Below the pieces are notes generated by a model. It worked only from the letters and a program-made list of their open reading frames with translations, did not search any database and was not told where the DNA came from. From positions 50,363 to 114,362 of the forward strand of contig CAYJJI010000001.1 of the NCBI GenBank assembly GCA_964370475.1: DNA of 64,000 bases, in the 5' to 3' direction. Made by a program: the position numbers and the translations under genes. This DNA comes from an uncultured Muribaculaceae bacterium. GTDB taxonomy: Bacteria; Bacillota_I; Bacilli_A; RF39; UBA660. Positions 2,072 through 30,738 of this stretch are shown here, piece by piece; the first letter of the stretch is position 1, and each line of letters begins with the position of its first letter.

Positions 2072-3850
2072 TTACTGCGCGAAGGAAAGCACCGAGCGTG
2101 CCGAAGAGAGGCCGTTAGGATATCCAGTGAGGCTGCTGAAATTCCAAACACCAGCACCACTGTCATCATAACAAGACCCACCTCGGTTGAACCAGGAATA
2201 AGTCGAGTTGACAAAGTTAGCTTTATCAGAGCTCCAGTTGGACATCGTAGTGCTATATGGATTTAACTCTACTGTTGCATCTCCATATATACCTCTTGTA
2301 TAATCACTAGAACTTGATCCATTAGCATATGAATCATAGTGCTTTGCATCTGGGGTAGTGGTGAAACCTGAAAGACTTGGATAGAAGTTTCCACTGCTAT
2401 CTTGCATATTCCCCATTACATATTCCCATCTTCCTCCTGCCATATCATATATACCTGTTATATTATGGGTTGTACTTGCTTTTATTCCATTTGCTGTTTC
2501 CCATCTATTACTTGCTGGACATATATTTATCCCTAATTCTGAGACATCTTGACTTGTATCAGATCCTCCACATCCAGTTACTATATCATATCCATTTGAA
2601 CTAGAATAATAATTATTGTTCTCTATTTTTACTGAACACGCTACATCATCTTCACATATTCCGTATTTAGATTGCGATAGATACGCTACCGCTCCCCACT
2701 CAGTATTTTTCATCATATGCATATCTGTGGTTGCATCCAATGAATATGCATTTTTAGTTCTTTGTATATTATAAAACATTGTACTTACATTTGCATTATG
2801 TGCTGAATTGACATTTGGTTTTATAATATAAGTAGTTTCCATGTCATTATTATTTTTTGGGTAATCTCCAGCATCTATAAAAATATTTTGCCATCCTAAC
2901 TCAAACTTCCCTACCCAAAGACCAGCTTGTTCTACACCACCAAAAGTAAATGCAGGATGAATTATTACATCATTATTTTCTATATCAGTATTAACTTTAC
3001 TAATTGGTACAAAGTTTATTTCTATTGATTCTTGTGCATTTACTATTGATGATTTTTTATATTCATATCTTGGAATCCATACATACATCTGCTCTATTGA
3101 TTCCATTGGTATTGTAGTTCCCGGATTTAGTGTTGTAAATGTTGGATCTACTATTACCGCATTCGCCCATTTTGATTCAGCATAACTATACCAAGCATCT
3201 TCATATATATCAGCAACAGTTACAACACCTGTATCTGCTATATTAACTGGTATCATTTTACTATCTAATACTGGATCACTTCCTGCTAAAACAGGATCAG
3301 TATAAGGAGGAAATGCTGCCTCAGCACTAACCGTAATCTTAGCTTGTATCTTTTTATTAGCAGCATTAGAAAGAGTTCCAGATCCATCTATCCACATTCT
3401 AAACATATGTTCATTAACTGCTCCTGGAGCTAAATTATAAGAAGATAAATTATAAGCAGTAGCTCCTTCAATAGTTGCTGTAGTAGTATTGCTTATAATA
3501 CTAGGAGTTAATCCATCAATAGAATATTTAATAAGATCATGACTTATATCAGTAATACTTAATACTTCTAAATTAACACTATATCTAGCATCAACAGTAC
3601 AAGTATTTTCTATTGAAAAGAAATAAGGAGCTTGAAACATTCCTTGATCATCAGTTAAAGGAAAAGAATTAGTTAAATTAATAGTACTACTACTATCCTC
3701 AGCAAAAACAATACTAAAACATCCCGAATCAACTAAATTTTCTCCAGATTGAGTTTCCCTTATCGACCATAATGCATACGAAAAACCAACAGCTATAGCT
3801 ACTGTTAATAATAAAGCAGTACCAATCAATATAATAAATTTAGGTTTCAT
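2072..3850 (-). CDS. Secreted modular protein, paralog 1: Sec signal peptide, unknown N-terminal module A, conserved linker B, C-terminal FGE/SUMF1-like domain
   Basis: Probable start at MKPKF (AGGAG 8 nt upstream; the ORF track has a longer alternative start). Hydrophobic segment ends ..SYA/LW. C-terminal motifs GIYDMAGGRWEYVMGN and WFNRGGSCYDDSGAGVW resemble FGE motifs GxYDMxGNVWEW and RVxRGGSW. Confidence 0.6.
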   Translation of the reverse strand: MKPKFIILIGTALLLTVAIAVGFSYALWSIRETQSGENLVDSGCFSIVFAEDSSSTINLTNSFPLTDDQGMFQAPYFFSIENTCTVDARYSVNLEVLSITDISHDLIKYSIDGLTPSIISNTTTATIEGATAYNLSSYNLAPGAVNEHMFRMWIDGSGTLSNAANKKIQAKITVSAEAAFPPYTDPVLAGSDPVLDSKMIPVNIADTGVVTVADIYEDAWYSYAESKWANAVIVDPTFTTLNPGTTIPMESIEQMYVWIPRYEYKKSSIVNAQESIEINFVPISKVNTDIENNDVIIHPAFTFGGVEQAGLWVGKFELGWQNIFIDAGDYPKNNNDMETTYIIKPNVNSAHNANVSTMFYNIQRTKNAYSLDATTDMHMMKNTEWGAVAYLSQSKYGICEDDVACSVKIENNNYYSSSNGYDIVTGCGGSDTSQDVSELGINICPASNRWETANGIKASTTHNITGIYDMAGGRWEYVMGNMQDSSGNFYPSLSGFTTTPDAKHYDSYANGSSSSDYTRGIYGDATVELNPYSTTMSNWSSDKANFVNSTYSWFNRGGSCYDDSGAGVWNFSSLTGYPNGLSSARSVLSFAQ

Positions 3851-3904
3851 TAAAACACTCCTATCATTAAAATAATTATATAACAAAATAAATATAAGTA
3901 CAAG

Positions 3905-3937
3905 TTAAAAGAATTACTAAAATAGTAATTCTTTTAA
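3905..3937. promoter_or_regulatory. Perfect 15-bp-arm palindrome (ttaaaagaattacta-aaa-tagtaattcttttaa) upstream of paralog 1
   Basis: Seen directly in the sequence. Sits about 55-90 nt upstream of the paralog 1 start codon. Could be an operator or a divergent terminator. Confidence 0.3.
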
Positions 3938-3977
3938 CTAAATATATAACTCTACATAAAATATATTAGGTGATTAT

Positions 3978-4160
3978 ATGAACAAACCTCCTAAACAAGT
4001 TACTCCTTTTAAAGTATTTATTATTACTACCCTTTTAGTACTAATATTTTATCAATCAATAATAACTTTAATAATACCATTTAGAATAAATGTATTTGTT
4101 TTATTTATTGAAGTCTGTTTACTTATTTTCTTTCTCTTTAGAGTAATATGGCCTTATTAA
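3978..4160 (+). CDS. Small hydrophobic ORF (60 aa, 2 predicted TM), uncertain
   Basis: AGGTGA 4 nt before the ATG. Composition is the F/I/L/Y codon set expected by chance in AT-rich DNA. Overlaps the 3' end of the ysxE-like gene. Confidence 0.2.
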   Translation: MNKPPKQVTPFKVFIITTLLVLIFYQSIITLIIPFRINVFVLFIEVCLLIFFLFRVIWPY

Positions 4161-5012
4161 TGCTTCACTCTTAAATATATAATCTAACTGCTTTCTAACT
4201 ACTTCTGTTTTATCATACTCACTACCACTAAATACTATCTCACCAGGCATTGCAATCAAAATATATAATAATTTCAATTCATCTTCATTTAAAGAAAACT
4301 CATCCAAATATATATTTAACAGCGTACTAAATTCCAAATCATAGTAATGTTTTTTATAAAACATTACTATATCCCACACTGGTGTATCAACCCGACTCTT
4401 TTCCCAACTAACTAAATAGTCTAAATCCCCTTTTAAATAATGATCAAGTTCCAAATTATTATGTAACAAACAAACTCTTTGTTTGTTTTTTTCTTTAACT
4501 AAATCATACCATTTATCCAACTCACTTTCACAAAATAATAAAGCATTATTAATAGAAGAATAATTCCTAACAAATAAATAACTAGAAGGACTCATAAACT
4601 CTTCAATTATTAATTCATCAAATAAAGAAATATAAAATGATTTAGAATACAATATATTATTTTTAATATTATCATAAATCTCTTTATATACATTATTTGT
4701 TACTTCCTTAAAATAAGCAGTCTTATTATGTAAAGAAGCTATCAATCTAATTAAATCTTCTGATTGTTGTTCTATAGGTTCGTTAATAGTATCAATATAT
4801 TCATACACTAAAACATCACTTCTAGAACCATCAATAAGTTTAGGAACATTATGAAAATTCCTACTCTTTAAATAATTAAATAACTCATTAATATCCTTTT
4901 CCTTTTTCTTTACTATAAACTTTCCATCCATAGTATCAAAAATTTTAACACTCTTATTTAAAGTAACCCTAAGAGGTTTATATATCTCTGTTAATAAATC
5001 AACACTATTCAT
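4119..5012 (-). CDS. ysxE: CotS/YsxE-family spore-coat kinase-like protein
   Basis: 297 aa with an APH/CotS-like fold (CLLHNNLELDHYL resembles the H.D....N catalytic loop). Overlaps the preceding spoVID-like gene by 8 nt, as in the spoVID-ysxE operon. Confidence 0.45.
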   Translation of the reverse strand: MNSVDLLTEIYKPLRVTLNKSVKIFDTMDGKFIVKKKEKDINELFNYLKSRNFHNVPKLIDGSRSDVLVYEYIDTINEPIEQQSEDLIRLIASLHNKTAYFKEVTNNVYKEIYDNIKNNILYSKSFYISLFDELIIEEFMSPSSYLFVRNYSSINNALLFCESELDKWYDLVKEKNKQRVCLLHNNLELDHYLKGDLDYLVSWEKSRVDTPVWDIVMFYKKHYYDLEFSTLLNIYLDEFSLNEDELKLLYILIAMPGEIVFSGSEYDKTEVVRKQLDYIFKSEALIRPYYSKEKENK

Positions 5013-5574
5013 TATTACTAGGTATAATTAACTTATCTCCAACTTTTATATTACTAATATCATTATACTCCTTAATATATTCAACACTAGTTTGATATTT
5101 AGAACATATTATTTCAATAGTTTCTTCTTCTTTAACTATATGAATATTATAAAGAATATAAGAATCATCACTATTAGTAATTAACTCTTCCTTAGGTTCT
5201 TCTATTTCATTAACTAATTCCTTATAATCAACTCTAACATCCTCTATAATTTCTTTCTCCATAGTATCAATCATAAACTCTATATTAACTCTTAATATAT
5301 TAGGACTTACAACATCATAAGTAAAATCAACAATCGAAAAGTCAACAAGCTCAGTAACATCATTAGTATAATTAATCGAAAAAGGAATTAAATGTCTAAA
5401 ACTATCTTTATTAACACTAATTTCATGAGCTTTATATTCTCCACTAACTATAAAATTCCCGCTAACTCCCTCAGTATCATCAACATAATCATGTTCCAAA
5501 GATATACTGCATATTTCAGCTATCTTAGTATCAAATTCAATATCATTAGATATTGGCACATTCTTCTTCATCAA
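5005..5574 (-). CDS. spoVID: SpoVID/SipL-like spore morphogenetic protein (short form) with C-terminal LysM domain
   Basis: N-terminus SISLEHDYV...VSGEY resembles SpoVID_N (SLDPDIRV...LTGEY). C-terminal LysM (CSKYQTSVEYIKEYNDISNIKVGDKLIIP). Confidence 0.5.
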   Translation of the reverse strand: MMKKNVPISNDIEFDTKIAEICSISLEHDYVDDTEGVSGNFIVSGEYKAHEISVNKDSFRHLIPFSINYTNDVTELVDFSIVDFTYDVVSPNILRVNIEFMIDTMEKEIIEDVRVDYKELVNEIEEPKEELITNSDDSYILYNIHIVKEEETIEIICSKYQTSVEYIKEYNDISNIKVGDKLIIPSNNE

Positions 5575-5614
5575 ATCATCTCCTAAAAAAGAATATGAAT
5601 ATAATAATTTTTTA

Positions 5615-5645
5615 TACCAAAAAAAGAAGATTACTCTTCTTTAAA
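5615..5645 (-). terminator. Rho-independent terminator of lon (hairpin including the stop codon, then T-run on minus strand)
   Basis: Minus strand reads aaagaag-agtaat-cttcttt followed by a T-run. Confidence 0.5.
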
Positions 5646-7949
5646 TAAATTATTAAATATTTCATCATATTTATTAACCCCAATAATCTCTAAATTATCA
5701 AGGACATATTTAGGAATAAACTCCAAATCAGTAACATTATCTTTAGGAATAAATATCTTTTTAATACCACTGTTATAAGCTCCAATAACTTTTTCTCTTA
5801 ATCCACCAATTTTTAATACATCACCTTGTAAATTAATTTCTCCAGTCATTGATATCTTATAATCAATTAATTTACTAGATAATAAACTAATCAAAGAAGT
5901 AACAATAGCACAACCAGCACTAGGTCCATCCTTTTTTATAGCTCCCTCTAAAAAGTGAATATGAATATCTTTCTTATCAAAAAAATAATCATTTACCATA
6001 AATTTATCTTTATTAGATCTTATATAACTGATAGCTACATCAACAGACTCATTCATCGTTTGACCAAGTAATCCCGTAATAATTCTCTTCCCACTACCAT
6101 CATACATCGAAGATTCTATTTGCATTATTAAACCACCAAAAGGAGTATAAGCCATTCCATTAACTACTCCAAAACTATCAAATAATATTTCATTATTAGA
6201 GTACTTACTATAACTTAAATATTTAACTAAATCCTTATCAGTTAATTTCTTAATAGATTTTTTATCTTTAATAATCCAATCAGTAACAATCTTTCTAACT
6301 ATTGTTTCCAAATTTCTTTGTAAATCTCTAACCCCAGATTCCTTCGTATAAGATTTAATAATTTTTAAAAGTAACTCATCATTAAAAACAATATCTTTCT
6401 TTAAAACTATATGATCTTTATATATATTAGGCAACAAATAGTTTTTAGCTATATCTACTTTTTGAAACTCAGTATAACTAGATAACTCAATTATCTCTAA
6501 TCTATCTAATAAAGCAGCTGGAATAGCTCCTATATCATTAGCAGTAAGAATAAACAATACCTTAGATAAATCAAAAGGTTCTTCTATATAATTATCAATA
6601 AACATCATATTTTGTTCAGTATCTAAAATATCTAATAAAACAGAAGCAGGATCCCCTTTAAAATCCTTAACCATCTTATCAATTTCATCAATTAAAATTA
6701 AAGGATTATTAACACCAGTCTTATTAATACCTTGAATAATCTTCCCTGCATTAGCTCCAAGATAAGTCTTACGATGTCCAATTAACTCATTAGAATCGTT
6801 CAACCCTCCAACACTAATCTTATAAAAACTTTTCTTTAAAGCTCCAGCAACTGCTTTAGCAAGCGTTGTCTTACCAACACCAGGAGGTCCTACAAAACAC
6901 AAAACAGGCGATTTAATATCCTTATTACGATTCTTTATAGCCACATATTCAATAATTCTCTCTTTAATATTTTCAAGACCATAATGACTCTTATCCAAAT
7001 ACTTTCTAATAACCTTCAAATCATCTTCATCTAAACTACTATTATTCCAAGGCAAATTAAGTACCAAATCTAAATAATTACGTATCACAGATGACTCAGG
7101 AGAAGATTCATTAGTATGTTCAAATTTCTTAATTTCTTTAGATATCTTAGCTTTAATAGAATCACTTATATCTAAATTATTTAATACATCAAAATAACTA
7201 CTAGTTAAATCATCTTTTTCTTCTTCATCACCAAGTTCCTTTTGAATTTCTTTTAACTTTTCTTTTAAAATAAACTCTCTTTGATTGTTTTCAAAAGACA
7301 TCTTCAAATTTTCTTCAATATGGTTATCTAACTCAAGAACTTGTAACTCTAACTTCAAATCAACTATCAAAGCATTAGCACGATGATAAGGATTTAATTC
7401 AACCATATAAGAAAGTTTTTTCTCCATACTAAAAGGAACATTATTAACAACTAAATCAACTAATAAATCTAAATCCTTTGAATTATTTAAAGTATTTATA
7501 AAACTATTAGAAACATATTTAGCAATCTTTAAAAAATCCTTAGTTAAATCAACTATTTTTCTTCTAACAGCTAATTCCTTAATTTCATTAAGTTTAGGAA
7601 AATCCAATAACATACAACGAGCTTCTAACACTTCATTATCTAAAATATAATTTGAATAAGACTTTATCTTAACTCTTCTCTTACCAGTAAGTACTATGCG
7701 GTAATTTCCATTAGGTAATTCTATTTTACTTTTAACAATAGCAATAACCCCTATAAAAGGCAAATCATTAATATCAGGACTCTCTTCAAATTGATTTCTA
7801 GGAGCTACAATTAATAACTCATTATTATGACTTCTAGTAGAAAGCTCAATAATGTTTTTAGATAAAATATTATTAAGTTCTAATTTAACTTCTTGATGAG
7901 GCAAAAGGACTAAATTTTTTAATAATAACACTGGTAAATTAATTGTCAT
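5631..7949 (-). CDS. lon: ATP-dependent Lon protease (LonA)
   Basis: 772 aa with an N-terminal LON domain, Walker A GPPGVGKTT and S16 active-site KDGPSAGCAIVTSLIS. AGGAGG ribosome-binding site. Confidence 0.9.
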   Translation of the reverse strand: MTINLPVLLLKNLVLLPHQEVKLELNNILSKNIIELSTRSHNNELLIVAPRNQFEESPDINDLPFIGVIAIVKSKIELPNGNYRIVLTGKRRVKIKSYSNYILDNEVLEARCMLLDFPKLNEIKELAVRRKIVDLTKDFLKIAKYVSNSFINTLNNSKDLDLLVDLVVNNVPFSMEKKLSYMVELNPYHRANALIVDLKLELQVLELDNHIEENLKMSFENNQREFILKEKLKEIQKELGDEEEKDDLTSSYFDVLNNLDISDSIKAKISKEIKKFEHTNESSPESSVIRNYLDLVLNLPWNNSSLDEDDLKVIRKYLDKSHYGLENIKERIIEYVAIKNRNKDIKSPVLCFVGPPGVGKTTLAKAVAGALKKSFYKISVGGLNDSNELIGHRKTYLGANAGKIIQGINKTGVNNPLILIDEIDKMVKDFKGDPASVLLDILDTEQNMMFIDNYIEEPFDLSKVLFILTANDIGAIPAALLDRLEIIELSSYTEFQKVDIAKNYLLPNIYKDHIVLKKDIVFNDELLLKIIKSYTKESGVRDLQRNLETIVRKIVTDWIIKDKKSIKKLTDKDLVKYLSYSKYSNNEILFDSFGVVNGMAYTPFGGLIMQIESSMYDGSGKRIITGLLGQTMNESVDVAISYIRSNKDKFMVNDYFFDKKDIHIHFLEGAIKKDGPSAGCAIVTSLISLLSSKLIDYKISMTGEINLQGDVLKIGGLREKVIGAYNSGIKKIFIPKDNVTDLEFIPKYVLDNLEIIGVNKYDEIFNNLFKEE

Positions 7950-8041
7950 AATCCGCCTCCTAAAATATATAAAGTATATTATATCTTATCAAAAAAAAAA
8001 GTAAACAACTTTTCACTTTTTTTACATCAACTTGGCAACAT

Positions 8042-9532
8042 TCAGTAAACAGCAGCTACAGATCTAGTAGCATACATTCCATAAGCTATCCCAAAATAAC
8101 TATTAAAAGCAAATACTCCCGCTTCAGTACCTAAATTAGCAGTAGAACCTCTATACATCCAATGATATTCGCCACCAACAAATCCAGCTGAATCACCATT
8201 CCAAGTTATTCTATTCGCTGGAGACATTTCAGTAGTAGCATCACCCGCAATACCTCTTGAATATTCATACATATTGGAAGAATAATTATAAGAATCATAA
8301 TACTTACTAGCAGGAACTGTAGGAAAAGCAGCATATGAATTAACAAAAGTTCCACTAGTACTCTTCATATTAGCCATTACTGCATCATATTTACCACCAG
8401 CCATATCATAAACTCCATAAACATTTCTAGTAGTAGAAGCCTTCGCCCCATTAGTAGTATTCCATCTATAAGTAGAAGGACAAATAGAAAGACCAGAAGC
8501 ATTAACTAAAACAGAAGTATCACTCCCTCCACATCCAGTAATAGTATCTAAATTAGTATTATGGTAACTATTATTCTCAACTTTTAAAGAACATGTCCCA
8601 TTGTCATTACAAACACCATACTTAGATTGAGATAAATACGCAATAGCACCCCATTCAATATTTTTAATCATATGAACATCTGTAGTTGAATCTAAACTAT
8701 AAAGTGTTTTAGCTTCTTGAACTTCCGTAAATAATCCATAATGATTTAAATTAACTACAGGAGCAACATTTGGAATATTCTTTGTATTTGCACCTTGTTC
8801 AAACTTACCTACCCAAAAACCAGATAACTTATCAGTTCCAAATGTAAAAGCAGAATGAGCAGTAGTATTTTTATCAACAAAATAAACATCAATAGCATTT
8901 GCAGAATTTACAATAGAACTAACATCATATCTAAATCTAGGAATCCATACATACATCTGTCCAACAGCACTCATAGGAATAACTGTTCCAGGAGGAGAAT
9001 TAAGATAAGATGTATTAGAAAGAACTATAGCATTCGCCCACTCACTATTCACATAATTGTACCATTCTTCTTCTAAATCAGCTACTTTGATCGTTCCATC
9101 ACTTTCTAAAACAATCGGTAACATTTTCGAATCTAAAAGTGGATCATTTCCATTCAATTCCGTTTCAATATATTTTTTAAAAAAATATATAGAACAATCA
9201 TCATTACCACTAAAAGACATATCTAAAGACCAATTTGATTGATTCCACACAGCTGTAGTAACTCCATCACAAACAAATCTATCAAAATGATAATTAGAAT
9301 TAGCAACAGGAAATTCAGTAGACTTAACACCACTAACATACACATTTAAATTAATAGGAGAATCAACTAACGAATTAATAATTACAGTATTATAATTAAC
9401 TTCAAAATACGCAAAAGAAATTCCCAAAATAGTAAATGCTATTAAAACAAGCAAAGAAAAAATTAAATGCTTTTTAGTATATTTCTTTTTATTATATTCC
9501 TTTGAAACATTAAATTGTTTCATATGAATCAC
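8042..9532 (-). CDS. Secreted modular protein, paralog 2: different N-terminal module, shared linker B, C-terminal FGE/SUMF1-like domain
   Basis: DPLLDSKMLPIV...WYNYVNSEWANAIV linker, then MYVWIPRFRYD..AFTFG..GFWVGKFE..EWGAIAYLSQSKYGVC..ITGCGGSDTS..GVYDMAGGKYDAVMANM..YRGS. Only 6 nt separate it from the pdp stop. Confidence 0.6.
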   Translation of the reverse strand: MIHMKQFNVSKEYNKKKYTKKHLIFSLLVLIAFTILGISFAYFEVNYNTVIINSLVDSPINLNVYVSGVKSTEFPVANSNYHFDRFVCDGVTTAVWNQSNWSLDMSFSGNDDCSIYFFKKYIETELNGNDPLLDSKMLPIVLESDGTIKVADLEEEWYNYVNSEWANAIVLSNTSYLNSPPGTVIPMSAVGQMYVWIPRFRYDVSSIVNSANAIDVYFVDKNTTAHSAFTFGTDKLSGFWVGKFEQGANTKNIPNVAPVVNLNHYGLFTEVQEAKTLYSLDSTTDVHMIKNIEWGAIAYLSQSKYGVCNDNGTCSLKVENNSYHNTNLDTITGCGGSDTSVLVNASGLSICPSTYRWNTTNGAKASTTRNVYGVYDMAGGKYDAVMANMKSTSGTFVNSYAAFPTVPASKYYDSYNYSSNMYEYSRGIAGDATTEMSPANRITWNGDSAGFVGGEYHWMYRGSTANLGTEAGVFAFNSYFGIAYGMYATRSVAAVY

Positions 9533-11955: not shown

Positions 11956-13491
11956 TCACTCAACTTCATAACACATACCCTCTGGACTATTTCCAAGACA
12001 TCTTTTAATTTCACATGTATGTTCACCAGTACAAACATCAAATCCCCAATCAGACCAAGGACCATTTTCTCTATAACCACTTCTTTCACAACTAAAAATA
12101 GGTTGATCTGCATTATTAATACAATAAGGATGACTTAAAACATAAAAGCTACCATTATACTGACATCTATTTCCATTATCACATACATATCCTGGTATAG
12201 GAGCTTTCGGATATACATGATGACCACTAATAAAAACAGAAGACCTAGTCCTATACTTAGTTACTATTGATAATTTAAAATAAACTTCAACAACAGTATT
12301 CTCTCTTGGCATAATAAAATTATCACTATTTAATAAAACTCCATTAACATACATTTTATCCACTTCATAATTTACATTCGGAACAAATGATAATGAAATA
12401 TTATTTCCAAATAAAGAAGAATCCTTACTTGAATATGCAACTCCACCATCACCATTAACAACACTAATGGTATATAAAGTTTTATCAACCTTACTTACAT
12501 TAAAAGGCATCTTAGCTTCATTACCTGCATTATCATAAACATATAAAACATAATCCCCATTATCTCTAGTAACAGTAATCAAACCATTATTAGAAAGAAA
12601 AACATTAATATCATTAATTCTTAATGAATTAATACCAGAGCCAACAACGCCATCATTATATTCGATATTTACTTCTCTATCCTTATTTATATACTCACTA
12701 TTATCAACATCTACTTCAATTACTGGAGGAATCTTATCAATCTTAAGTGTTCTAACTTTAGTTTTAAATCCTTCATTAGTTAAAATAGAACCATATATTG
12801 AAATAATAGAATTATCGGCACTAACTAATAACATATTAGAACAATCATCAACATTATTAATATCTACATTAGAAACATCACAAAAATTACTATCACTATA
12901 CTTTGAAGACTTATTTACTCCACCTCCAGTAAATACAATATCAGATCCTTCCTTAACGCTAAATCCATCATCAACATCTAAAACTAATAAAACGTCAGTA
13001 TTAATCCAAACAAATTCAGATAAACCACTAATTAATTCTAATTTATCACCAATAACCCCGTTAACTACCTTATAACCATCAAATTTCAACCCATCTTCAT
13101 CTTCAAGTTCATATTTAACACTACAATCATCAATTACTTCATCAGAAAAAGTAGCAACAATTTGATTCTTAGAAAAAGATATATTTATTGCATTACAACT
13201 CATATCACTACTATCAACAGGATTAATAACTTTATCACTATTAACATCATCAGAACTAATATATCCATCATATACAAGCTGTAAAACAGGTATCGTTATC
13301 GGAGCAGACAAGTTAAGTTCATCTCCCCATTTTTCAGAAGCTATTTCCAAACTTTGTATTTTATTATCTAAAGCCTTTTGCTTTCCTGAATTAGTAATAT
13401 TTATATAACTTGGAATAGCTATCAATAACAAAATACCAAGTATTACTATAGCTACTAATATTTCAACAATTGTAAATCCCTTATATTTCAT
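11956..13491 (-). CDS. Large type IV pilin-like protein (prepilin-type N-terminal cleavage/methylation domain plus ~470-aa C-terminal region with a Cys-rich end)
   Basis: MKYKG/FTIVEILVAIVILGILLLIAIPS is a classic class III signal (G at -1, E at +5). 511 aa. The last ~90 residues contain 10 Cys. Confidence 0.7.
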   Translation of the reverse strand: MKYKGFTIVEILVAIVILGILLLIAIPSYINITNSGKQKALDNKIQSLEIASEKWGDELNLSAPITIPVLQLVYDGYISSDDVNSDKVINPVDSSDMSCNAINISFSKNQIVATFSDEVIDDCSVKYELEDEDGLKFDGYKVVNGVIGDKLELISGLSEFVWINTDVLLVLDVDDGFSVKEGSDIVFTGGGVNKSSKYSDSNFCDVSNVDINNVDDCSNMLLVSADNSIISIYGSILTNEGFKTKVRTLKIDKIPPVIEVDVDNSEYINKDREVNIEYNDGVVGSGINSLRINDINVFLSNNGLITVTRDNGDYVLYVYDNAGNEAKMPFNVSKVDKTLYTISVVNGDGGVAYSSKDSSLFGNNISLSFVPNVNYEVDKMYVNGVLLNSDNFIMPRENTVVEVYFKLSIVTKYRTRSSVFISGHHVYPKAPIPGYVCDNGNRCQYNGSFYVLSHPYCINNADQPIFSCERSGYRENGPWSDWGFDVCTGEHTCEIKRCLGNSPEGMCYEVE

Positions 13492-19967: not shown

Positions 19968-20723
19968 TCAATAAATAAACAAGTTATTTAAAACTTCCAT
20001 TATTTGATTTCCAAACATAAATGTAATATAAACAGCAGTAATTAAAAACGGTCCAAAAGGTACTTCAGACTCTAACTTAGTATGAATGAAATAAATAGCA
20101 AACGGTAAAGTCAATAAAGAACCAATTATAAGTGCCACAAAAGATAACTGAAATCCTAGTACAACCCCAAATAAGAAAGCTAACTTAACATCTCCAAAAC
20201 CTAAACTCTCTCTTTTAAATACTCTATCGCCAACAAACTTAATTAAATACATAACAAGAAATAATACCACTCCAACTAAAATACTAAATAAAAATTCTTC
20301 AACACCACTAAGGACTAACTTAGTAATTAAAATAGTAACAATCCCTAAAACTAAAGGAATATCCAATATATACAAATATTTGAAATCACTTACATAAGTA
20401 ATTACTAGTATAGAACTGATAACTAAATATATAATCAACCCTTCTAAGGAATTACTCATATAATAAGATAAACCAAATAAAAATCCAGTTAATAATTCAA
20501 TTAAAACATAACTAATAGACAATTTATACCCACACTTACTACATTTTCCTCTTAAAAAAACATAAGAAAAAACTGGTATTAGTTCATACCATGAAAGAGG
20601 CTTATCACACCCCTCACAATGACTACCAGGTTTAACAATTGATTCTCCTCTAGATAATCTATCACCAACTACGTGAAAGAAAGATCCAAAAAACAACCCA
20701 AAAATTCCAAATAAATAAACCAT
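19968..20723 (-). CDS. pilD: Prepilin peptidase (A24 family)
   Basis: 251 aa polytopic membrane protein. N-terminal Cys tetrad (CEGCDKPL...CSKCGYKL) and C-terminal peptidase domain. 9 nt downstream of the pilC-like gene. Confidence 0.7.
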   Translation of the reverse strand: MVYLFGIFGLFFGSFFHVVGDRLSRGESIVKPGSHCEGCDKPLSWYELIPVFSYVFLRGKCSKCGYKLSISYVLIELLTGFLFGLSYYMSNSLEGLIIYLVISSILVITYVSDFKYLYILDIPLVLGIVTILITKLVLSGVEEFLFSILVGVVLFLVMYLIKFVGDRVFKRESLGFGDVKLAFLFGVVLGFQLSFVALIIGSLLTLPFAIYFIHTKLESEVPFGPFLITAVYITFMFGNQIMEVLNNLFIY

Positions 20724-20732: not shown

Positions 20733-22262
20733 CTACATATTAATTGTACCATACATTCCATACATTGGCATTACAACCGCCATCAAAATAGCTCCAACAA
20801 CTACTGCCAAACCAGCAATCATAACCGGTTCTATAATAGCTTTAAAACTAGTAACTATCGACTTATGTTGTATTTGAAAATGCTCACTAACTTTTTCCAT
20901 CATTGAAGCAAGTTCTCCAGTCGATTCCCCAGTAACAATCATGAAATAAGCTGCACTAGGAATAGCCCAGTGATCTTTAAAAGTTTCAGATATCTTACCA
21001 CCAGTAGATATATTATTAATAGTTTCAAACATAATTTCTTTATAAACTTCATTAGAAGTTATCCTACTTAAAATATCCATACTATCAGTAATATAAACAC
21101 TATTCTTTAACAATGACGAAAACGTCTTAGTAAAAATAGTTATCTCATTAAATATTATTAAATCCTTAATTACAGGAATCTTCATTACCATTATTTGCAT
21201 TGCTTTTCTAAAAGCTTTAACTTTCTTATAAGAAAACACAAATACTAAAACAACTAAAATAGTAACAGCTATATATATTAAGTAATTAGCTTGCAAATTT
21301 TCCGATAAATTTAATACTAACAATGTAATCCCAGTAACAGGAGCACCCATTGATTCATAAATACCTTCAAACTCTGGCATTATAAATAACATTATAAATA
21401 TAACAATACCTACAGCAAATACACTTATTATCGCCGGATAAGTCATAGCACTAATCATATCTTTTTTAGTTTTATCAATCTCAGAATAATAATTAGCCAT
21501 ATCATCTAAAGTAGATTGTAAATCTCCAGTAGCTTCAGCTGCTTTTAACATATTAATTAATAAACTAGGAAACATTCCACCTTGCTTAGTTAAAGCATTA
21601 GAAAAACTCTCTCCCATAGTAAGTTCATAAACGATAGCATTAAAAATACTTTTTCTCGCAGTATCTTTACCAGTTTGTTGAGCTAAAATTCTCATAGAGT
21701 CAGTTAATGGTATACCACTTCTTACATAAGTAGATAATTGTGTTAACCAAAAAATTAAATCTTTACTTTTCATCTTACGAGGAAATAAACCACTTTCGCC
21801 ATAAACAAAATTAATCCAATCACTAGTTTCAATACTAAAAACTTCATAACCTTCATTAACTAAAAAAGTATTAACATCTAACTTAGACATCCCAGTAAAA
21901 TTATCAGTAACAAGTTTACCTTTATAATCAAGTGCAGTATATCTAAATATTGTTGGTTTAGTTAATCTCTTAGCATCTTCACCAGTTAACTCAGCATTAA
22001 GCTTAGCTTTCTTCTCTTCTAACTTAGCAAGTACTCTAGGACTAATTTTAGTCTTACGATCTACCACAGCTTCTTTTTTTTCAGTTTTTATTATGTTCTT
22101 AGTACCTTTATAAGTTTTATCAACTGCACTAGAAGAAACATAATATAATTTAGCTAAAGGAGAAAATAAAACTTTTAATCCTAGAAAAGCATATCTAAAT
22201 ATATCAAAAAAACTTAATATAAAATTAATTGGCATAAACAATACATTACTCTTCTTAGCCAT
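20733..22262 (-). CDS. pilC: Type IV pilus / type II secretion platform protein (GspF/PilC family) with ~120-aa N-terminal extension
   Basis: Two T2SSF-like repeats. Characteristic YTALDYKGKLVTDNFTGMSKLDVNTFLVNEGYEVFSIE N-domain. 509 aa. Confidence 0.7.
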   Translation of the reverse strand: MAKKSNVLFMPINFILSFFDIFRYAFLGLKVLFSPLAKLYYVSSSAVDKTYKGTKNIIKTEKKEAVVDRKTKISPRVLAKLEEKKAKLNAELTGEDAKRLTKPTIFRYTALDYKGKLVTDNFTGMSKLDVNTFLVNEGYEVFSIETSDWINFVYGESGLFPRKMKSKDLIFWLTQLSTYVRSGIPLTDSMRILAQQTGKDTARKSIFNAIVYELTMGESFSNALTKQGGMFPSLLINMLKAAEATGDLQSTLDDMANYYSEIDKTKKDMISAMTYPAIISVFAVGIVIFIMLFIMPEFEGIYESMGAPVTGITLLVLNLSENLQANYLIYIAVTILVVLVFVFSYKKVKAFRKAMQIMVMKIPVIKDLIIFNEITIFTKTFSSLLKNSVYITDSMDILSRITSNEVYKEIMFETINNISTGGKISETFKDHWAIPSAAYFMIVTGESTGELASMMEKVSEHFQIQHKSIVTSFKAIIEPVMIAGLAVVVGAILMAVVMPMYGMYGTINM

Positions 22263-22349
22263 AACAACACCTCACTATTTTAATTAATTATAACACAATA
22301 AAAAAACAATGTACATATCAGAAAAAATAAAAAGAAGATAAAATCTTCT

Positions 22350-24041
22350 TTATAAAATAATACTCATAACAGATCTAGTAGAAGTATATAAAGCAGCAGC
22401 TCCATCACCTACATAAAATGCCCAAATACCAGCATAAATATCATTACCAGCTCTTCCTCCTCTTACAAACCAAGGAGCCATTTTATATATAAAATAAGCA
22501 TAATCAGTATTCCAATTTGACATATTTACTGAAGTTGCATCAAGTTCTTTTATCCCATCTCCACTAATTGCCCTATGATAGTCAAGTTCATAAGTACCAT
22601 AAGTATATGAATCATAATACTTAGAAGCAGGAGCTACAGAAAAACCAGAACTCCAAGTATTGAAGTTTCCAAACTCATTTACCATATTAGCCATTACATA
22701 TTCCCATTTACCACCGGCCATATCATAAACACCAGTAACATTAGCTGTAGTACTAGCTTTAACTCCATTTGCTGTTGACCATCTATTTTCTAACGGACAT
22801 ATTTCTATACCACTTAAAGCAACACCAGTAGAAGTATCAACACCACCACAACCAGTAACAGATGCATACGACGTAGAATTGAAATAACTATTATTTTCTA
22901 CCTTTCCACCACAAGTTCCATCAGCACTACAAATACCATATTTTGATTGTGATAAATATGCTACTGCTCCCCATTCCATATTTTTTATAATGTGAACATC
23001 TGATTCTTCATCCAAACCATAAGTATCCATAGTATTATTAACATTATCATATAATACAGAAATAGATGCATTACTAAAAGAATTAATATTAGGTACTATT
23101 TTATTACCAACACCTTGTTCAAACTTACCTATCCAAAAACCAGGTAACTCCTCTTCTCCAAACGTAAAAGCAGGATGAGCAGAAGCAGAAATATCAACAA
23201 AAGTTAAATCAACAGCAGTATCAGCATCAAATACAGACTCCTCAACGTAAGAATATCTAGGAATCCATACATACATTTGTTCTATTTTATCAAGAGGTAT
23301 TTCCACTCCAATATATAAATTAGTATATGTCGGATCAACTATAACAGCATTCGCCCATTCACTATTTTCATAAGAATACCATTTTTTTTCTACATCAGCA
23401 ACAATAACACTACCATCATCATTAATAATTACAGGTAACATCTTAGAATCTAATATCGGATCAGCACCAGCTAAAATTTCATCATCATAAGGTAAAAATG
23501 TCGAATTAGCAACTACTGAAATTTTAGCATCAACAACCTTGTTAGCAGAATTACTCATAGTTGCAGAAGAATCAATCCACATTCTAAATTCATGCGTAAC
23601 TGACTCATTAGGTTCCAAAATATAATCATCAAAGCTATAAGCTTTAGCAGAAGAATTTATGGCATCCACTTCCTCATTACTACTAACTATAACCGGATCA
23701 TCATAATCCAGTGCTCCTTTAATTAAACTATGACTTAAAGTAGTTGTATTTAAAACTTCTAAATTAACTAAATAAGATGTGTTATTAGAACAAGTATTAG
23801 TAACAGTAAACACATAAGGAGTAGATCTCATTCCATCAATATCACTAATAGGATAAGCATTACTCAAATTTATCAGAGATTCAGAATCTTCTGAATAATT
23901 AATCGACAAACAACCGCTATTAACAATACCATCACCAGATTGTTGATTATCACTTACCCACAAAGCAAATGAAAAACTTATAGTCAAGACGCATACTAAC
24001 AGTACACCAATTACAAACAAAAATATCATTTTAACATTCAT
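22350..24041 (-). CDS. Secreted modular protein, paralog 3: signal peptide, module A, linker B, FGE/SUMF1-like domain
   Basis: Module A (SGCLSINYSEDSESLINLSNAYPISD...TNTCSNNTSYLVNLEVL...EFRMWIDSSATMSNSANK), linker (DPILDSKMLPVI..WYSYENSEWANAVIVD), FGE-like motifs (GVYDMAGGKWEYVMANM, PWFVRGG). AGGAT ribosome-binding site 8 nt upstream of the ATG. Confidence 0.6.
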   Translation of the reverse strand: MNVKMIFLFVIGVLLVCVLTISFSFALWVSDNQQSGDGIVNSGCLSINYSEDSESLINLSNAYPISDIDGMRSTPYVFTVTNTCSNNTSYLVNLEVLNTTTLSHSLIKGALDYDDPVIVSSNEEVDAINSSAKAYSFDDYILEPNESVTHEFRMWIDSSATMSNSANKVVDAKISVVANSTFLPYDDEILAGADPILDSKMLPVIINDDGSVIVADVEKKWYSYENSEWANAVIVDPTYTNLYIGVEIPLDKIEQMYVWIPRYSYVEESVFDADTAVDLTFVDISASAHPAFTFGEEELPGFWIGKFEQGVGNKIVPNINSFSNASISVLYDNVNNTMDTYGLDEESDVHIIKNMEWGAVAYLSQSKYGICSADGTCGGKVENNSYFNSTSYASVTGCGGVDTSTGVALSGIEICPLENRWSTANGVKASTTANVTGVYDMAGGKWEYVMANMVNEFGNFNTWSSGFSVAPASKYYDSYTYGTYELDYHRAISGDGIKELDATSVNMSNWNTDYAYFIYKMAPWFVRGGRAGNDIYAGIWAFYVGDGAAALYTSTRSVMSIIL

Positions 24042-26060: not shown

Positions 26061-26061
26061 C

Positions 26062-27777: not shown

Positions 27778-27854
27778 AAAATACCCTCTAACTATATATA
27801 TTATAGACAAAAGTCCAATTTCCTTTTTTTTCACGCAAAAAAATGCAAAAAAGT

Positions 27855-29174
27855 CTAAATTTTCTGCTTTTTTATCATTTTTCGCCCTAAAATAACTCCG
27901 AAAATCAAAAATAAATATAAAATTGTATAATCTTGACTCTTATAAGTATCAGGAATAACAACCAATTTCTCACTAATCAGCTTCTTTGATTTAACTAAGC
28001 CATCAGTTCTAACTTTAACTAAGTAATCATCAACTAAAGAAAAACCTTCATTACTAACATGTCTAATAATGTAATCACCATAACCAAGAATACAAACATC
28101 ACTTTCACTAAGTTCCATTCTACTTAATTCATTAAATTCATCATCAAGAATAGAAAAAATACTAACCGTATCAACTACATCATCATTATATTTATTTAAT
28201 GCAATTTCATTAGTAATAAATTTAATATCTAATTCAATTTCAGTATCAAGTCCATCAACAATCTCAAATTCCACAACTTCATCATTTCTTAAAAAACCTA
28301 TATCTCTTGATTTCTCTTTTATTATATAATCCCCTGGACTTAATAATATTTCAAAAACTTCATTACTATTAAAGTCCATAATCTTATTATTATTCTTATA
28401 TAAACTATAATCAATTCCATCACTACACTCTAAACAAATAACTTCATCTTTAACATAATTAATATTTAACTTCCCTACTAATAATGAAAAATTATATACA
28501 ATTTCTCTTTCATCTAATTTACCAGGAACATATATGTAATTATCTCCATTACTAAACATATTAGCTTCTTCAACATAATTGTTATAATTACTCTTTAATA
28601 TAATATCTTCTATATTAGTTTCTATTATTAGTTCATTATCATCAATAATCCCATTACTTGCATTAAAATTATTCAATACATTATTAGTATCAATTAAAAT
28701 ATTCTTTTCATTATATTCTAAAACATCACTATCAAATATAGGATTTAAAGAATCATTTAAAACTAGTTCTAACAATTCATTAATTTCATCTTCATACTTA
28801 ATAACAATATCACCACTACTATCAATGAAATTAACATCATAAAAATAATCCCATATCAAATACTGAGTAATAAAATACCACTTTTGAGCAGTATGATTTT
28901 CATAATTATATCCATAATACATTAACTTATTAATATATTCTACATCATCATAATCTTTAACATAATTATTAAAATACATATAATCATAATTACTACTATA
29001 TACAACTTGATCATCAATATATATAAACTTAACTTTTAAATCAATTCCCTCAACTCTTACATAAGACCCTCTTATCTCACTACCTATATCAACTTCTAAA
29101 GCACCACTTATAATTGAAAAACTAAAAAACATCATTAAAGTAAATAAACATTTAATCATTAAACCTCCTTTCAC
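27855..29174 (-). CDS. Hypothetical secreted protein with signal peptide and C-terminal TM anchor plus basic tail
   Basis: 439 aa, Y/N/D-rich, ending IPDTYKSQDYTILYLFLIFGVILGRKMIKKQKI. Confidence 0.4.
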   Translation of the reverse strand: MKGGLMIKCLFTLMMFFSFSIISGALEVDIGSEIRGSYVRVEGIDLKVKFIYIDDQVVYSSNYDYMYFNNYVKDYDDVEYINKLMYYGYNYENHTAQKWYFITQYLIWDYFYDVNFIDSSGDIVIKYEDEINELLELVLNDSLNPIFDSDVLEYNEKNILIDTNNVLNNFNASNGIIDDNELIIETNIEDIILKSNYNNYVEEANMFSNGDNYIYVPGKLDEREIVYNFSLLVGKLNINYVKDEVICLECSDGIDYSLYKNNNKIMDFNSNEVFEILLSPGDYIIKEKSRDIGFLRNDEVVEFEIVDGLDTEIELDIKFITNEIALNKYNDDVVDTVSIFSILDDEFNELSRMELSESDVCILGYGDYIIRHVSNEGFSLVDDYLVKVRTDGLVKSKKLISEKLVVIPDTYKSQDYTILYLFLIFGVILGRKMIKKQKI

Positions 29175-29211
29175 CTATATATATTAATTATTAATTAAAA
29201 ATTTCCTCCAA

Positions 29212-29238
29212 TAAAAAACTTGTTCTAAAGAACAAGTT
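29212..29238 (-). terminator. Rho-independent terminator of paralog 4 (acttgttct-aa-agaacaagt, T-run on minus strand)
   Basis: 9-bp perfect stem. The A6 on the plus side is the T-run for the minus-strand transcript. Confidence 0.55.
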
Positions 29239-29346
29239 AATCATTATATCTTAGATATTTATAACTCCAAAAAAGCATATTTATCTATAAAACTATAAGC
29301 CATACTTTTTATAACAAACACTATTTATCATTAATAAAGCATATAA

Positions 29347-30738
29347 TTATCCACCAATATTCCCAAAAGCCCATTCATCTAAAAATAAATCATCAAACTC
29401 TAAAGCATATATAGCAAAATAATCATCTACTGAAACAATTTTATAACTTACTCCTTTTATAACTATACTATTATAACCACTATTACTTTCAAATGCCCTA
29501 CTTCCAATATAAGCAACACTATCTGGAATAACCAATTCAGTTAATTCATTATGTCCAAAAGCCAACTCACCTATAGTTTTTAAATTCGCACCTAAAGTTA
29601 ATTGAGTTAAAGAATTAGACTCAAAAGCACCATAACCAATCTCTATAACCCTATCAGGAATAACTAGTTCTGTTAAGTGATTATAAGCAAAAGCACTATT
29701 ACCAATCTCTATAACCCTATCAGGAATAACTAATTCAGTTAATTGATTATAAGCAAAAGCATAATCTCCTATAGTAGTTACATTCTCCCCTAAAGTTAAT
29801 TGAGTTATAAGATTAGCACCAAAAGCCGCATCATTTATTTCTACAACACTATTAGGTATAACCACTTCTGTTAATTTATTCCCAAGAAATGCACCAAAAA
29901 CAGCTCCACTATCCACATCATAATAACCGTCAATTACTTGCAATGTTTCAGGTAATATAGCACTAGTAATATCAAATCCAATCATATTAGTTGTATCTTT
30001 AACAAAAGCTTCTGGTCCTAAAACAGTTACTGGTTTACCATTTATTTCACAAGGAATAACTACATCTTTAGGTCCAGCATCAGTATATCCATCTATAGTT
30101 ACAGAATTACTAGTTTCAGTATAAGTAAAATAACTATCGTCCGTCGGCGTTAAACCTCTAGCTTCATAATCACTTAAACAAATTTCTAAATCACTAAGAA
30201 CTGGAACAGCTACAATCACTATCTTAGAATTAACAATCTTATTTTGAGAATTCTCTAAAGTAGCAGAATAATCTACCCACATTCTAAAATCATGACTTCT
30301 ACTCTCACCAGCATTTAATTTAAATGTATCTAAAAGATACGAAGTAGAATTTGCAATAGTAGATTCAACTACTGATTTATTATTTAAAGTCTCTGGATTA
30401 TTAGTATCTAATACACCACTAATTAATGAATGTCCTAAAGTAGTACTATCCAAAACTTCAATATTCACCTGGTAACTAGCAGCTAAATCACAAGTATTAG
30501 ATATAGTAAAAGAAAACGGATCAGTTAAAATCCCCTCACTATCAGGTATTGGAAAAGTATTTGTAATATTTATATGTTCAGTATCTTCAGTAAAAGTAAT
30601 ATCAAAACACCCTGTACTAACAAGGTTGTTATCAGTTTGTGTTGCTGTAAGCATCCAAACTGCAAAAGTAACACCACTAATTATTAAAGCTACTAACGTA
30701 ATACCCATACCAATCATTAATAATAATCTCTTATTCAT
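29347..30738 (-). CDS. Secreted modular protein, paralog 4: signal peptide, module A, then BspA-type leucine-rich repeats (no FGE domain)
   Basis: Module A (STGCFDITFTEDTEHINITNTFPIPD...SNTCDLAASYQVNIEVL...DFRMWVDYSATLENSQNK). C-terminal repeats of the form ELVIPDRVIEIGNSAFAYNHLT. GAGGG ribosome-binding site. Confidence 0.55.
   Translation of the reverse strand: MNKRLLLMIGMGITLVALIISGVTFAVWMLTATQTDNNLVSTGCFDITFTEDTEHINITNTFPIPDSEGILTDPFSFTISNTCDLAASYQVNIEVLDSTTLGHSLISGVLDTNNPETLNNKSVVESTIANSTSYLLDTFKLNAGESRSHDFRMWVDYSATLENSQNKIVNSKIVIVAVPVLSDLEICLSDYEARGLTPTDDSYFTYTETSNSVTIDGYTDAGPKDVVIPCEINGKPVTVLGPEAFVKDTTNMIGFDITSAILPETLQVIDGYYDVDSGAVFGAFLGNKLTEVVIPNSVVEINDAAFGANLITQLTLGENVTTIGDYAFAYNQLTELVIPDRVIEIGNSAFAYNHLTELVIPDRVIEIGYGAFESNSLTQLTLGANLKTIGELAFGHNELTELVIPDSVAYIGSRAFESNSGYNSIVIKGVSYKIVSVDDYFAIYALEFDDLFLDEWAFGNIGG
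29636..29767. repeat. Two tandem 66-bp direct repeats (~88% identical) encoding consecutive 22-aa LRR units; further partial copies nearby (29591-29632, 29789-29830)
   Basis: ccaatctctataaccctatcaggaataact(a/g)(a/g)ttc(a/t)gtta(a/g)(t/g)tgattataagcaaaagc occurs twice in tandem. Confidence 0.7.

Follow-up and report, generated by a model that had tools for sequence, protein, structure and literature searches.

The window, by which we mean the whole 64-kb stretch of DNA analyzed, carries on its minus strand four open reading frames (p1 to p4), which a preliminary description of this DNA had presented as modular paralogs.

2072..3850, minus strand: p1, 592 aa; helix ending GFSYALW, followed by module A (beta-sandwich), linker B and module C
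8042..9532, minus strand: p2, 496 aa; basic N-terminus, helix ending GISFAYF and its own two-Cys domain, followed by linker B and module C
22350..24041, minus strand: p3, 563 aa; built as p1, the protein chosen for the structure model
23487..23945, minus strand: module A of p3, residues ∼33–185; predicted eight-stranded beta-sandwich with a conserved Cys pair (GC...NTC)
22353..23486, minus strand: linker B and module C of p3, residues 186–563; head with a predicted CLec/FGE fold
29347..30738, minus strand: p4, 463 aa; leader and module A as in p1 and p3 (30169–30738), then BspA-type LRRs (∼29479–30090)

By BLASTP and tblastn, p1 and p3 are 49% identical over their full length (E 0), p2 is 43–49% identical to both across linker B and module C (E 1e-118 to 1e-122), and p4 is 38–40% identical to p1 and p3 over residues 1–190 only (E 1e-40 to 1e-44). 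The four proteins are true paralogs assembled from common modules. Pairwise alignment thus upheld the paralogy that had been claimed, for p4 by its N-terminal part only, and showed the motifs quoted in its favor (SGCF/L, NTC, FRMW(I/V)D, DP(V/I)LDSKM, MYVWIPR(Y/F), EWGA(V/I)AYLSQSKYG, TGCGG, G(I/V)YDMAGG and RGG). The N-terminal module of p2 is distinct, as had been noted, and is common to five homologs (P0009, P0011, P0016, P0020 and P0023). The BspA-type LRRs described in place of module C in p4 were recovered by the LRR_5 model (PF13306; E 6.4e-43, 146 bits vs. a cut-off of 27.7; residues 283–396 and more); p4 also matched the NCBIfam HupY/LrrG-like model (E 9e-29), with a score far under the model cut-off. 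The database protein P0007 is identical to p1. Apart from p1–p4 and a truncated copy next to p1, tblastn found no further family copies in the other 33 kb of the window.

Modules A, B and C of p1–p3 gave no match in direct Pfam and NCBIfam scans. In the structure model of p3, 239 residues superpose on TaqVP (PDB 5VF4) with 22% identity. The family profile matched the TaqVP sequence (E 0.0019) through the motif HPAF..G..W.G.F...H..N.EW.AVA, and a PDB sequence search with p3 alone gave a marginal TaqVP match (E 0.045). By the model of p3, module C of p1–p3 has a C-type-lectin (CLec) fold of the formylglycine-generating enzyme (FGE) subtype, and its closest relatives are variable proteins of diversity-generating retroelements (DGRs). 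TaqVP of Thermus aquaticus is such a DGR variable protein and lies inside a DGR cassette, whereas the window offers p1–p3 neither a template repeat (TR) nor genes for Avd or a reverse transcriptase (RT). Linker B, module A (in p2 its own domain) and the export leader are parts of p1–p3 that TaqVP lacks, and the sequence identity is low. TvpA of Treponema denticola (2Y3C), a lipoprotein, and Mtd of Bordetella phage BPP-1 (1YU0), which forms the trimeric tip of a phage tail fibre, stand much further from the p1–p3 heads than TaqVP does.

Module C had been described as FGE-like, without the catalytic Cys pair. The FGE-subtype fold and the absent Cys pair stand, but the proposed search with the FGE-sulfatase model (PF03781), the family of FGE/SUMF1 and pFGE/SUMF2, was negative, with no match to p1, p2 or p3 at E ≤ 0.1. 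Weak matches were obtained in 22 of 73 homologs (best E 2e-4), and the gathering score was passed by P0027 only (39.3 bits). No CxxxxC follows RGG/RGS in p1 (SCYDDSGAG), p3 (RAGNDIYAG) or p2 (TANLGTEAG), the Cys pair being presumed, from human FGE, to lie after RGGS. The FGE active-site position corresponds to the hypervariable C-terminal segment of the p1–p3 family. Because their heads are of the type hypermutated by DGRs in related gut bacteria, p1–p3 probably serve as variable binders of ligands, not as formylglycine-generating enzymes. The analogy with GldJ/GldK/PorK, by which module C would be an FGE/SUMF1-like enzyme or structural protein working with the type IV pilus machinery, is a fold-level likeness only. 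PorK, GldK and GldJ (Bacteroidota T9SS/gliding) are lipoproteins forming a ring in the diderm envelope, whereas the leaders of p1–p3 have no Cys and no T9SS-type genes are present among the window open reading frames; they show no specific sequence similarity to p1–p3, and their fold match is far weaker than that of the DGR variable proteins. We consider such a role very unlikely.

At E ≤ 1e-3, the family profile matched 3299 representatives (50% identity). Most of them come from gut Bacilli that are uncultured and low in GC, and genomes have several copies each. Module C forms the C-terminus and the N-terminus varies (type IV prepilin leaders, module A and others); the prepilin leader (N_methyl) is present in many homologs (P0102, P0106, P0017, P0096 and at least 21 open reading frames in the related loci). 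Within module C, Cys398 and Cys415 (p3 numbering) are almost invariant, and certain His, Lys and Asp residues fully so; in view of the latter, a conserved function that is not tied to variation retains some plausibility. Searching with a module A profile recovered 12 short proteins that stand alone, and no fusion that was informative. Most family members have no Pfam domain. On our reading, a large set of proteins that would have passed as FGE-like and of unknown function joins the ligand binders of the DGR variable-protein class.

A complete DGR targets the homolog in 6 of 80 related loci (L016, L046, L027, L055, L063 and L017). In these six loci the 3′ end of the homolog is repeated 280–850 nt downstream, 90–100% of the TR/VR mismatches fall at adenines of the downstream copy (the template), and MutS_I, bAvd and RVT_1 genes come after the repeats. 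The homology of the six true TR/VR pairs stops at the stop codon. Active VRs have 52–62% GC and 11–19% A in loci of 23–30% GC, and the A fraction of the TRs is 0.24–0.30. The DGR target of L017 has the module A, B and C build of p1 and p3. Relatives of module C fused to type IV prepilin leaders are DGR-targeted as well; we found no description of DGR-targeted type IV pilins in the literature.

The window was searched for the same elements. With the RT, bAvd and MutS_I proteins of L016, L017 and L046 as queries, tblastn gave nothing under E 0.006 in the 64 kb, and no TR was found there. A search for a cognate TR by the conserved 3′ block TTCGGCACGCTCNGTGNTTTCC gave six chance matches, on metagenome contigs of high GC that lack a homolog; viral contigs gave none. 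Nor did p1 or the truncated copy find a TR-like partner when every 3′ end was compared with every locus. Since the window has no TR, Avd or RT and the TR scan gave chance matches only, DGR involvement of p1–p3 themselves is indirect. A possible composition footprint of adenine mutagenesis (A-poor and GC-rich relative to the gene), by a criterion that is our own and not an established one, lies at the end of p1:

2075..2224, minus strand: VR-equivalent of p1 (last 50 codons); composition of a DGR VR, aligning to the VR/TR pairs of the six DGR loci

The last 150 nt of p1 have 50.7% GC, compared with 32.5% in the rest of the gene and 27.5% in the window, and their A fraction of 0.18 is VR-like and not TR-like. 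The footprint is weak in p2 (38% GC in the last 150 nt) and absent from p3 (32.7%). The GC excess of p1 is 0.18; a value of ≥0.17 is reached by 29 of 85 family genes, p1 and all six proven DGR targets included. None of the 17 columns in which TRs encode Asn (TR-Asn columns) is identical among p1, p2 and p3, as against 12 of 31 other columns (Fisher p 0.004). Alternatively, variation at the TR-Asn columns could reflect a fast-evolving binding surface, and the raised GC at the p1 end could stem from recent lateral acquisition or gene conversion.

A fifth, truncated copy that is absent from the earlier list of paralogs is found 3′ of p1:

1593..1742, minus strand: truncated fifth paralog; last ∼49 codons and stop of a module-C gene, with VR-like composition
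1415..1449, minus strand: conserved block 3′ of the fragment; direct repeat D3 (74% identity), counterpart at 1862–1896 downstream of p1

The fragment is 51% identical to p1 residues 544–592 (tblastn), has 49.3% GC and an A fraction of 0.18, and is linked to the p1 end by the direct repeats D1 and D2 at a spacing of 479 nt. We considered the fragment as a template repeat and rejected it: at 69% DNA identity to the p1 end, its mismatches involve every base (A 11, C 11, G 17, T 13), its A content is VR-like, and the homology extends ∼220 nt beyond the stop (unit alignment A4). Because these three features contradict a TR, we prefer to see in the fragment what is left, at the 3′ end, of a tandem paralog that was deleted. 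The duplication took in the gene end and its flank, since the D3 block is conserved downstream of both p1 and the fragment.

We therefore favor, with a probability of roughly 0.7, the reading that p1–p3 are exported, stalked proteins with DGR-class CLec binding heads, present in several fixed versions in a genome whose window holds no DGR. This reading would imply that (i) p1–p3 are exported, their N-terminal hydrophobic helix being a membrane anchor or cleaved; (ii) a stalk follows the helix, formed in p1 and p3 by the beta-sandwich of module A and in p2 by a smaller domain; (iii) the C-terminal CLec (FGE-subtype) head binds a ligand, with the last ∼45 residues as its variable surface; (iv) in related gut Bacilli an adjacent DGR (template repeat, MutS_I, bAvd and reverse transcriptase) hypermutates the same head; (v) the genome of the window holds several fixed head versions that differ exactly at the DGR-mutable positions; and (vi) p4 bears a different binding head, the BspA-type LRR, on the same stalk. 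The N-terminal hydrophobic helix and motif resemblance suggest export and surface display of p1–p3, and their ligand-binding or adhesin function is putative. p1 and the neighboring truncated copy keep the base composition of a freshly diversified VR; therefore, p1 may have been diversified recently or may still be targeted remotely by a DGR that lies beyond the window. Taken as a class, p1–p3 are probably new members of a known one, the DGR variable-protein (CLec) ligand binders.

The genes for p1–p3 might instead derive from phage receptor-binding (tail fibre) proteins and be prophage remnants. Their best viral structural matches, at E 1e-8 to 1e-5, are tail fibre proteins, tail collar fibre proteins and a SUMF-like protein of a phage, DGRs and CLec targets are common in gut phages (PMC8144416), and cellular Bacillota variable proteins resemble phage RBPs (bioRxiv 10.1101/2024.11.15.621889). 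However, all neighbors are same-strand housekeeping genes (sepF, lon, pdp, cdd, tig, greA, sigA, dnaG and alaS), and a non-exhaustive phage search saw no phage structural, integrase or lysis genes among the window open reading frames. p1–p3 also have N-terminal export leaders, which tail fibres do not, and we regard a phage derivation as barely credible.

Genes of the type IV pilus lie among the paralogs:

20733–22262, minus strand: pilC; T2SSF (Pfam, E 1e-50), downstream neighbor of p3
19968–20723, minus strand: pilD; A24_N_bact and Peptidase_A24 (Pfam), downstream neighbor of p3
11956–13491: prepilin, 511 aa, with N_methyl
22315..22349 (approximate limits), minus strand: terminator-like hairpin and T-run in the p3/pilC interval; from the MFE fold of 70 nt past the p3 stop

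The interleaving with pilus genes noted earlier holds within the window, where a prepilin, pilC and pilD neighbor the paralogs, but the neighborhood is not conserved: of 80 loci, only 3 have pilus gene homologs ≤10 kb from a member of the family. Likewise, of the suggestion that these proteins are a surface-appendage adhesin or enzyme tip, a variable ligand binder is probable, but the FGE enzyme signature and a conserved pilus neighborhood are absent. We take pilC and pilD near p3 as context only, which does not imply membership in the system of the p1–p4 family. A prepilin leader was not detected in p1–p4 (no PF07963/TIGR02532 match and no G[FM]T.IE motif).

Compatible with the explanation by DGR-class lectin heads is the idea that p1–p4 are filament subunits or tip adhesins, which would display the CLec or LRR head on a type IV pilus or on a module A-polymerised, SipW-dependent fibre of the TasA/camelysin type. 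The leaders of p1–p4 end in an aromatic motif similar to that of TasA/camelysin (Peptidase_M73), the module A beta-sandwich matches the TasA fibre weakly, and one homolog only, P0119, has a Peptidase_M73 match (residues 4–84, 25.3 bits vs. a cut-off of 22.5). The fold match of module A to TasA, however, is no better than that to the generic Ig-like domains of RbmA and MSP. p1–p4 have neither the G|F..E prepilin cleavage motif nor a TasA or camelysin HMM match, and an NCBIfam scan gave no match of the SipW-type signal model in their leaders. A motif scan of the window revealed no sipW-like gene, the signal-peptidase catalytic-box motif S[GPTNSA]SM.P being absent in every frame. A filament role is thus unlikely, though less so than the enzyme or phage readings.

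Returning to the DGR-class lectin heads, we put forward tentatively, as a conjecture, that a DGR encoded beyond the window still acts on p1 from a distance. On a wider scale, gut Bacilli with reduced walls might combine a single lectin head, open to diversification by DGRs, with exchangeable carriers (type IV pilins, stalks of module A that may be TasA-like, and others), their genomes keeping hypermutable as well as frozen copies. If true, this would be a Gram-positive counterpart of the type V pili of Bacteroides, on which DGR-diversified adhesive subunits are known (bioRxiv 10.1101/2024.11.15.621889). The module C family resembles those adhesins in concept, as a variable head on a pilus-type protein of a gut bacterium, but the pilus class (type V vs. 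type IV) and the phylum differ, and p1–p4 have no pilin leader. A lectin head joined to type IV pilin leaders or export modules offers a handle on how uncultivated small-genome gut Bacilli may attach to hosts, food particles or cells, and the family is a test case for how DGR targets outlast the retroelement as sets of fixed paralogs. As regards the window, the outcome is mostly clarification: p1–p3 are ordinary members, and p1 is worth checking for ongoing hypervariation.

The GC-rich spacer 3′ of p1 (1250–2110) gave nothing credible in an Rfam scan. It contains a hairpin:

2044..2070, minus strand: hairpin 3′ of p1; inverted repeat I6 with a 12-bp stem and a 3-nt loop, from 4 nt past the p1 stop

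Set against the stop-codon hairpins of L016, L055, L046, L027, L017 and L040, this element may be a terminator, an equivalent of the hairpin with which active DGR targets end, or both.

The paralogous family in the window was confirmed by its ORFs and by pairwise alignment, whereas the interpretation first given to it was partly supported. The window has 27.5% GC, and nearly all genes lie on the minus strand. A fifth, truncated copy had been overlooked in the preliminary description.

Family members in the window
2072-3850, minus strand, p1: leader, module A, linker B, module C
8042-9532, minus strand, p2: own N-terminal part, linker B, module C
22350-24041, minus strand, p3: leader, module A, linker B, module C
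29347-30738, minus strand, p4: leader, module A, leucine-rich repeats
1593-1742, minus strand, fragment: module-C protein, last ~49 residues only, 51% identity to the p1 C-terminus

p1 and p3 aligned over their whole length (49% identity). p2 was alignable to them over linker B and module C only (43-49% identity, E ~1e-118 to 1e-122), and its N-terminal part is distinct from module A, as had been proposed. p4 shared the leader and module A (38-40% identity over residues 1-190) and then passed into BspA-type leucine-rich repeats (Pfam LRR_5, E 6e-43), in agreement with the reported replacement of module C. The gene adjoining p4 downstream (27855-29174, minus strand, 439 aa) encodes a protein led by a signal peptide, with a thioester domain (TED, E 6e-5), a weakly matching SpaA-like prealbumin-fold domain and a C-terminal TM segment. 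Its product is probably another adhesin, and the two genes may form a small adhesin pair.

In sequence, module C is not FGE-like: Pfam and NCBIfam scans of p1-p3 returned nothing at E≤0.1. Weak matches to the FGE profile PF03781 were seen in 22 of 73 aligned family members, with the gathering score reached by a single homolog (P0027). p3 was modelled with AlphaFold2 on this 73-member alignment (mean pLDDT 92), and its C-terminal 380 residues, the head, showed a C-type-lectin (CLec) fold of the FGE subtype. The predicted structure thus settles that module C is FGE-like at the level of fold, with a faint sequence signal at the level of the family. The closest solved structure, ahead of FGE, was TaqVP, a variable protein of a Thermus aquaticus diversity-generating retroelement (DGR).

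Fold comparison of the p3 head
TaqVP (5VF4): 22.3 (239 residues, 22% identity)
TvpA: 13.2
PvdO: 13.2
Mtd: 11.7
PorK: 11.5
SUMF2: 11.3
EgtB: 10.7

TaqVP was also the top Foldseek match of the p3 model (E 2.4e-9), and the family profile found it by sequence (E 0.0019) through a common HPAF..G..W.G.F ... H..N.EW.AVA core. Among viral models, the best matches were phage tail fibres and one phage SUMF-like protein. FGE/SUMF1 has an active-site Cys pair, whereas p1-p3 lack it, as noted earlier, and the corresponding segment is the least conserved part of the family. Of the first interpretation, the FGE-like fold stood, but FGE membership and the suggested analogy to GldJ/PorK did not; p1-p3 have no PF03781 match, and PorK scored 11.5 vs. 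22.3 for TaqVP.

With module C alone as query, 3299 representatives (50% identity) were retrieved at E≤1e-3 and 2181 at E≤1e-10, and at least 566 relatives are encoded in species-representative genomes. The best 80 of these made up the locus set; with few exceptions they come from low-GC MAGs of uncultured gut 'Bacilli' or 'Tenericutes'. DGRs were detected by self-comparison of each locus. In 6 of the 80 loci (L016, L046, L027, L055, L063 and L017), a repeat of the final ~140 nt of the homolog lies 280-850 nt downstream, and 90-100% of the mismatches in these pairs sit where the copy downstream has an adenine. Genes for a small MutS_I protein, for bAvd and for a reverse transcriptase (RT), each confirmed by Pfam, follow or flank the repeat. 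These six loci are complete DGRs. The targets in L016 and L046 are prepilin-led, and that in L017 has a leader, module A, linker B and module C, the same build as p1 and p3. P0107-P0114, near-identical module-C proteins of 445-449 aa from different assemblies, differ in almost nothing but their last ~45 residues; their heads are hypervariable between strains, as expected of DGR diversification. The earlier idea of a variable adhesin holds, as a proposed function.

The MutS domain I protein has 123-136 aa and lies with bAvd and RT at 2754-4469 (L016), 7487-9229 (L046) and 6157-8307 (L017), in L017 between variable region and template repeat. In active targets (L016, L055, L046, L027 and L017), a short hairpin (4-nt loop) contains the stop codon or lies directly next to it, e.g., TAGCAAAC-nnnn-GTTTGCTA. 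The same arrangement in an orphan module-C gene (L040), with no DGR in the stretch examined, suggests remote targets. A module-C 3' end from a DGR-less locus (L037, 11107-11278) was 77% identical to the template repeat of L055 (9263-9417) from a different MAG, with 21 of 30 mismatches at template adenines. Variable-region-like composition with no adjacent DGR was seen in ~23 family genes.

No relative of RT, Avd or MutS_I was detected in the 64-kb window, and no cognate template for p1 was found in accessible metagenome and viral contigs or by comparing 3' ends with all loci. p1, p2 and p3 were identical at 0 of 17 alignment columns with Asn in the templates of relatives vs. 12 of the remaining 31 (Fisher p 0.004). 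Active variable regions stand out strikingly from these AT-rich genomes, with 52-62% GC and an adenine fraction of 0.11-0.19 in loci of 23-30% GC.

Composition of 3' ends in the window
p1, last 150 nt: GC 50.7%, A 0.18
Fragment 1593-1742: GC 49.3%, A 0.18
p2, last 150 nt: GC 38%
p3, last 150 nt: GC 32.7%

A 3'-end GC excess of ≥0.17 was measured in 29 of 85 family genes at the loci, including all six proven targets, and p1 (0.18) falls in this group. A 12-bp hairpin lies 4 nt past the p1 stop codon, and in active targets a hairpin lies at or over the stop; as a DGR-target feature the p1 hairpin is ambiguous, because a plain terminator would look alike. These data suggest that (i) p1-p3 are DGR-type CLec variable proteins, here without their retroelement; (ii) variation at template-Asn columns and GC-rich, A-poor ends remain as probable footprints of a DGR history; and (iii) diversification of p1 seems to be recent or still under way, and p2 and p3 seem to have been fixed for long. 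The most interesting point is that p1 may still be hypermutated from elsewhere in the genome.

The fragment was rejected as a template repeat: mismatches with the p1 end fall at all four bases, its adenine fraction is at variable-region rather than template level, and similarity to the p1 locus runs ~220 nt beyond the stop codon. We take it to be the remaining 3' end of a tandem paralog that was lost. It sits in the spacer between p1 and sepF (1276-2071, minus strand), which is unusually GC-rich for the genome (41% in 1743-2071), contains hairpins at 1813-1856, 1900-1928 and 1931-1973 and a repeated 35-nt block (1415-1449 and 1862-1896), and looks like the remnant of a tandem target-gene pair. 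Rfam gave no match in this spacer; the window's only Rfam match at gathering score was the L21 ribosomal protein leader (RF00559, 49362-49430, minus strand, 45.7 bits).

Several genomes have multiple copies, some in tandem arrays (four in L028). Module C is nearly always C-terminal, and the N-terminal part is interchangeable: a type IV prepilin leader of GFTLIELL type (at least 21 ORFs, with further near-matches), module A (27 ORFs), the p2-type domain, a leader followed by GYSALN, and other types. An insertion in p1 module C is common to P0020 and P0023, two homologs with a p2-type N-terminus, which is direct evidence of inter-module recombination. Module A also occurs in stand-alone metagenome proteins (P0143-P0154, 144-286 aa), and is thus an independent unit rather than just the N-terminus of such paralogs. 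In the p3 model, residues 2-32 form a single long helix, module A an eight-stranded beta-sandwich with a conserved Cys pair, and linker B a short beta linker packed against the head. Fold comparison of module A gave generic matches only (RbmA 7.7, MSP 7.7, TasA fibre 6.9), and a TasA-like Pyrobaculum bundling pilin was among the Foldseek matches. The leaders end in SYALW, SFALW, TFAVW and SFAYF, and the motif G-x-[ST]-[YF]-A-x-[WF], which recurs strongly across the family, resembles the SipW-dependent TasA/camelysin signal. The N-terminus of one homolog passed the Peptidase_M73 threshold; p1-p4 had no such match in Pfam and NCBIfam scans, and a motif scan of the window found no sipW-like motif.

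We propose that p1-p3 are exported, either membrane-anchored or released, and that each would consist of a stalk and a head of lectin fold, the C-terminal ~45 residues of the head making up a putative ligand-binding surface. Variable residues of Mtd, TvpA and TaqVP lie on an exposed face, and by homology those of p1-p3 would too. p4 would present an LRR head on the same kind of stalk as p1 and p3. Diversity would come from a DGR in some genomes and here from a small paralog repertoire instead, and the proteins might serve attachment to host, particle or cell surfaces.

The preliminary description had the paralogs interleaved with pilus genes. PilC (T2SSF) and PilD (Peptidase_A24) do come after p3, and a 511-aa prepilin is encoded at 11956-13491, but synteny is not conserved: only 3 of the 80 loci have PilC/PilD ≤10 kb from a family member. 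Because of this low co-occurrence, a terminator-like hairpin and T-run after p3, and no prepilin cleavage motif in p1-p4, a functional link to the pilus is weakened. The genuine pilus connection lies in the relatives, many of which are prepilin-led proteins with a module-C head. DGR targets of the CLec/FGE type are well documented (PMC11661182; PMC8144416), and a GspG-type pilin domain figures only among the rare carriers of variable regions (PMC11661182). DGR-diversified type V pilus adhesins have been described in Bacteroides, and in the same work variable proteins of cellular Bacillota are described as little understood and as similar to phage receptor-binding modules (bioRxiv 10.1101/2024.11.15.621889). 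In the literature searched, no paper brings together 'diversity-generating retroelement' and 'type IV pilin'.

Positions 42515-46310 encode a second set of filament or secretion genes, of Tad type.

Tad-type set and neighbours
39989-42417: three paralogous coiled-coil/TM proteins without Pfam matches, just downstream of the set
42515-43204 and 43197-44195: two T2SSF proteins
44204-45520: T2SSE ATPase
45513-46310: ParA/CpaE-like ATPase

Two large exported proteins are encoded further on. That at 53114-55768 (884 aa) has a glycosyl-hydrolase catalytic core (Glyco_hydro_cc), and the NISYSISILSN after its leader recalls the GYSALN leaders on some module-C proteins; that at 56369-58060 (563 aa) has Fn3_assoc/CHB_HEX_C and Amidase_3 domains.
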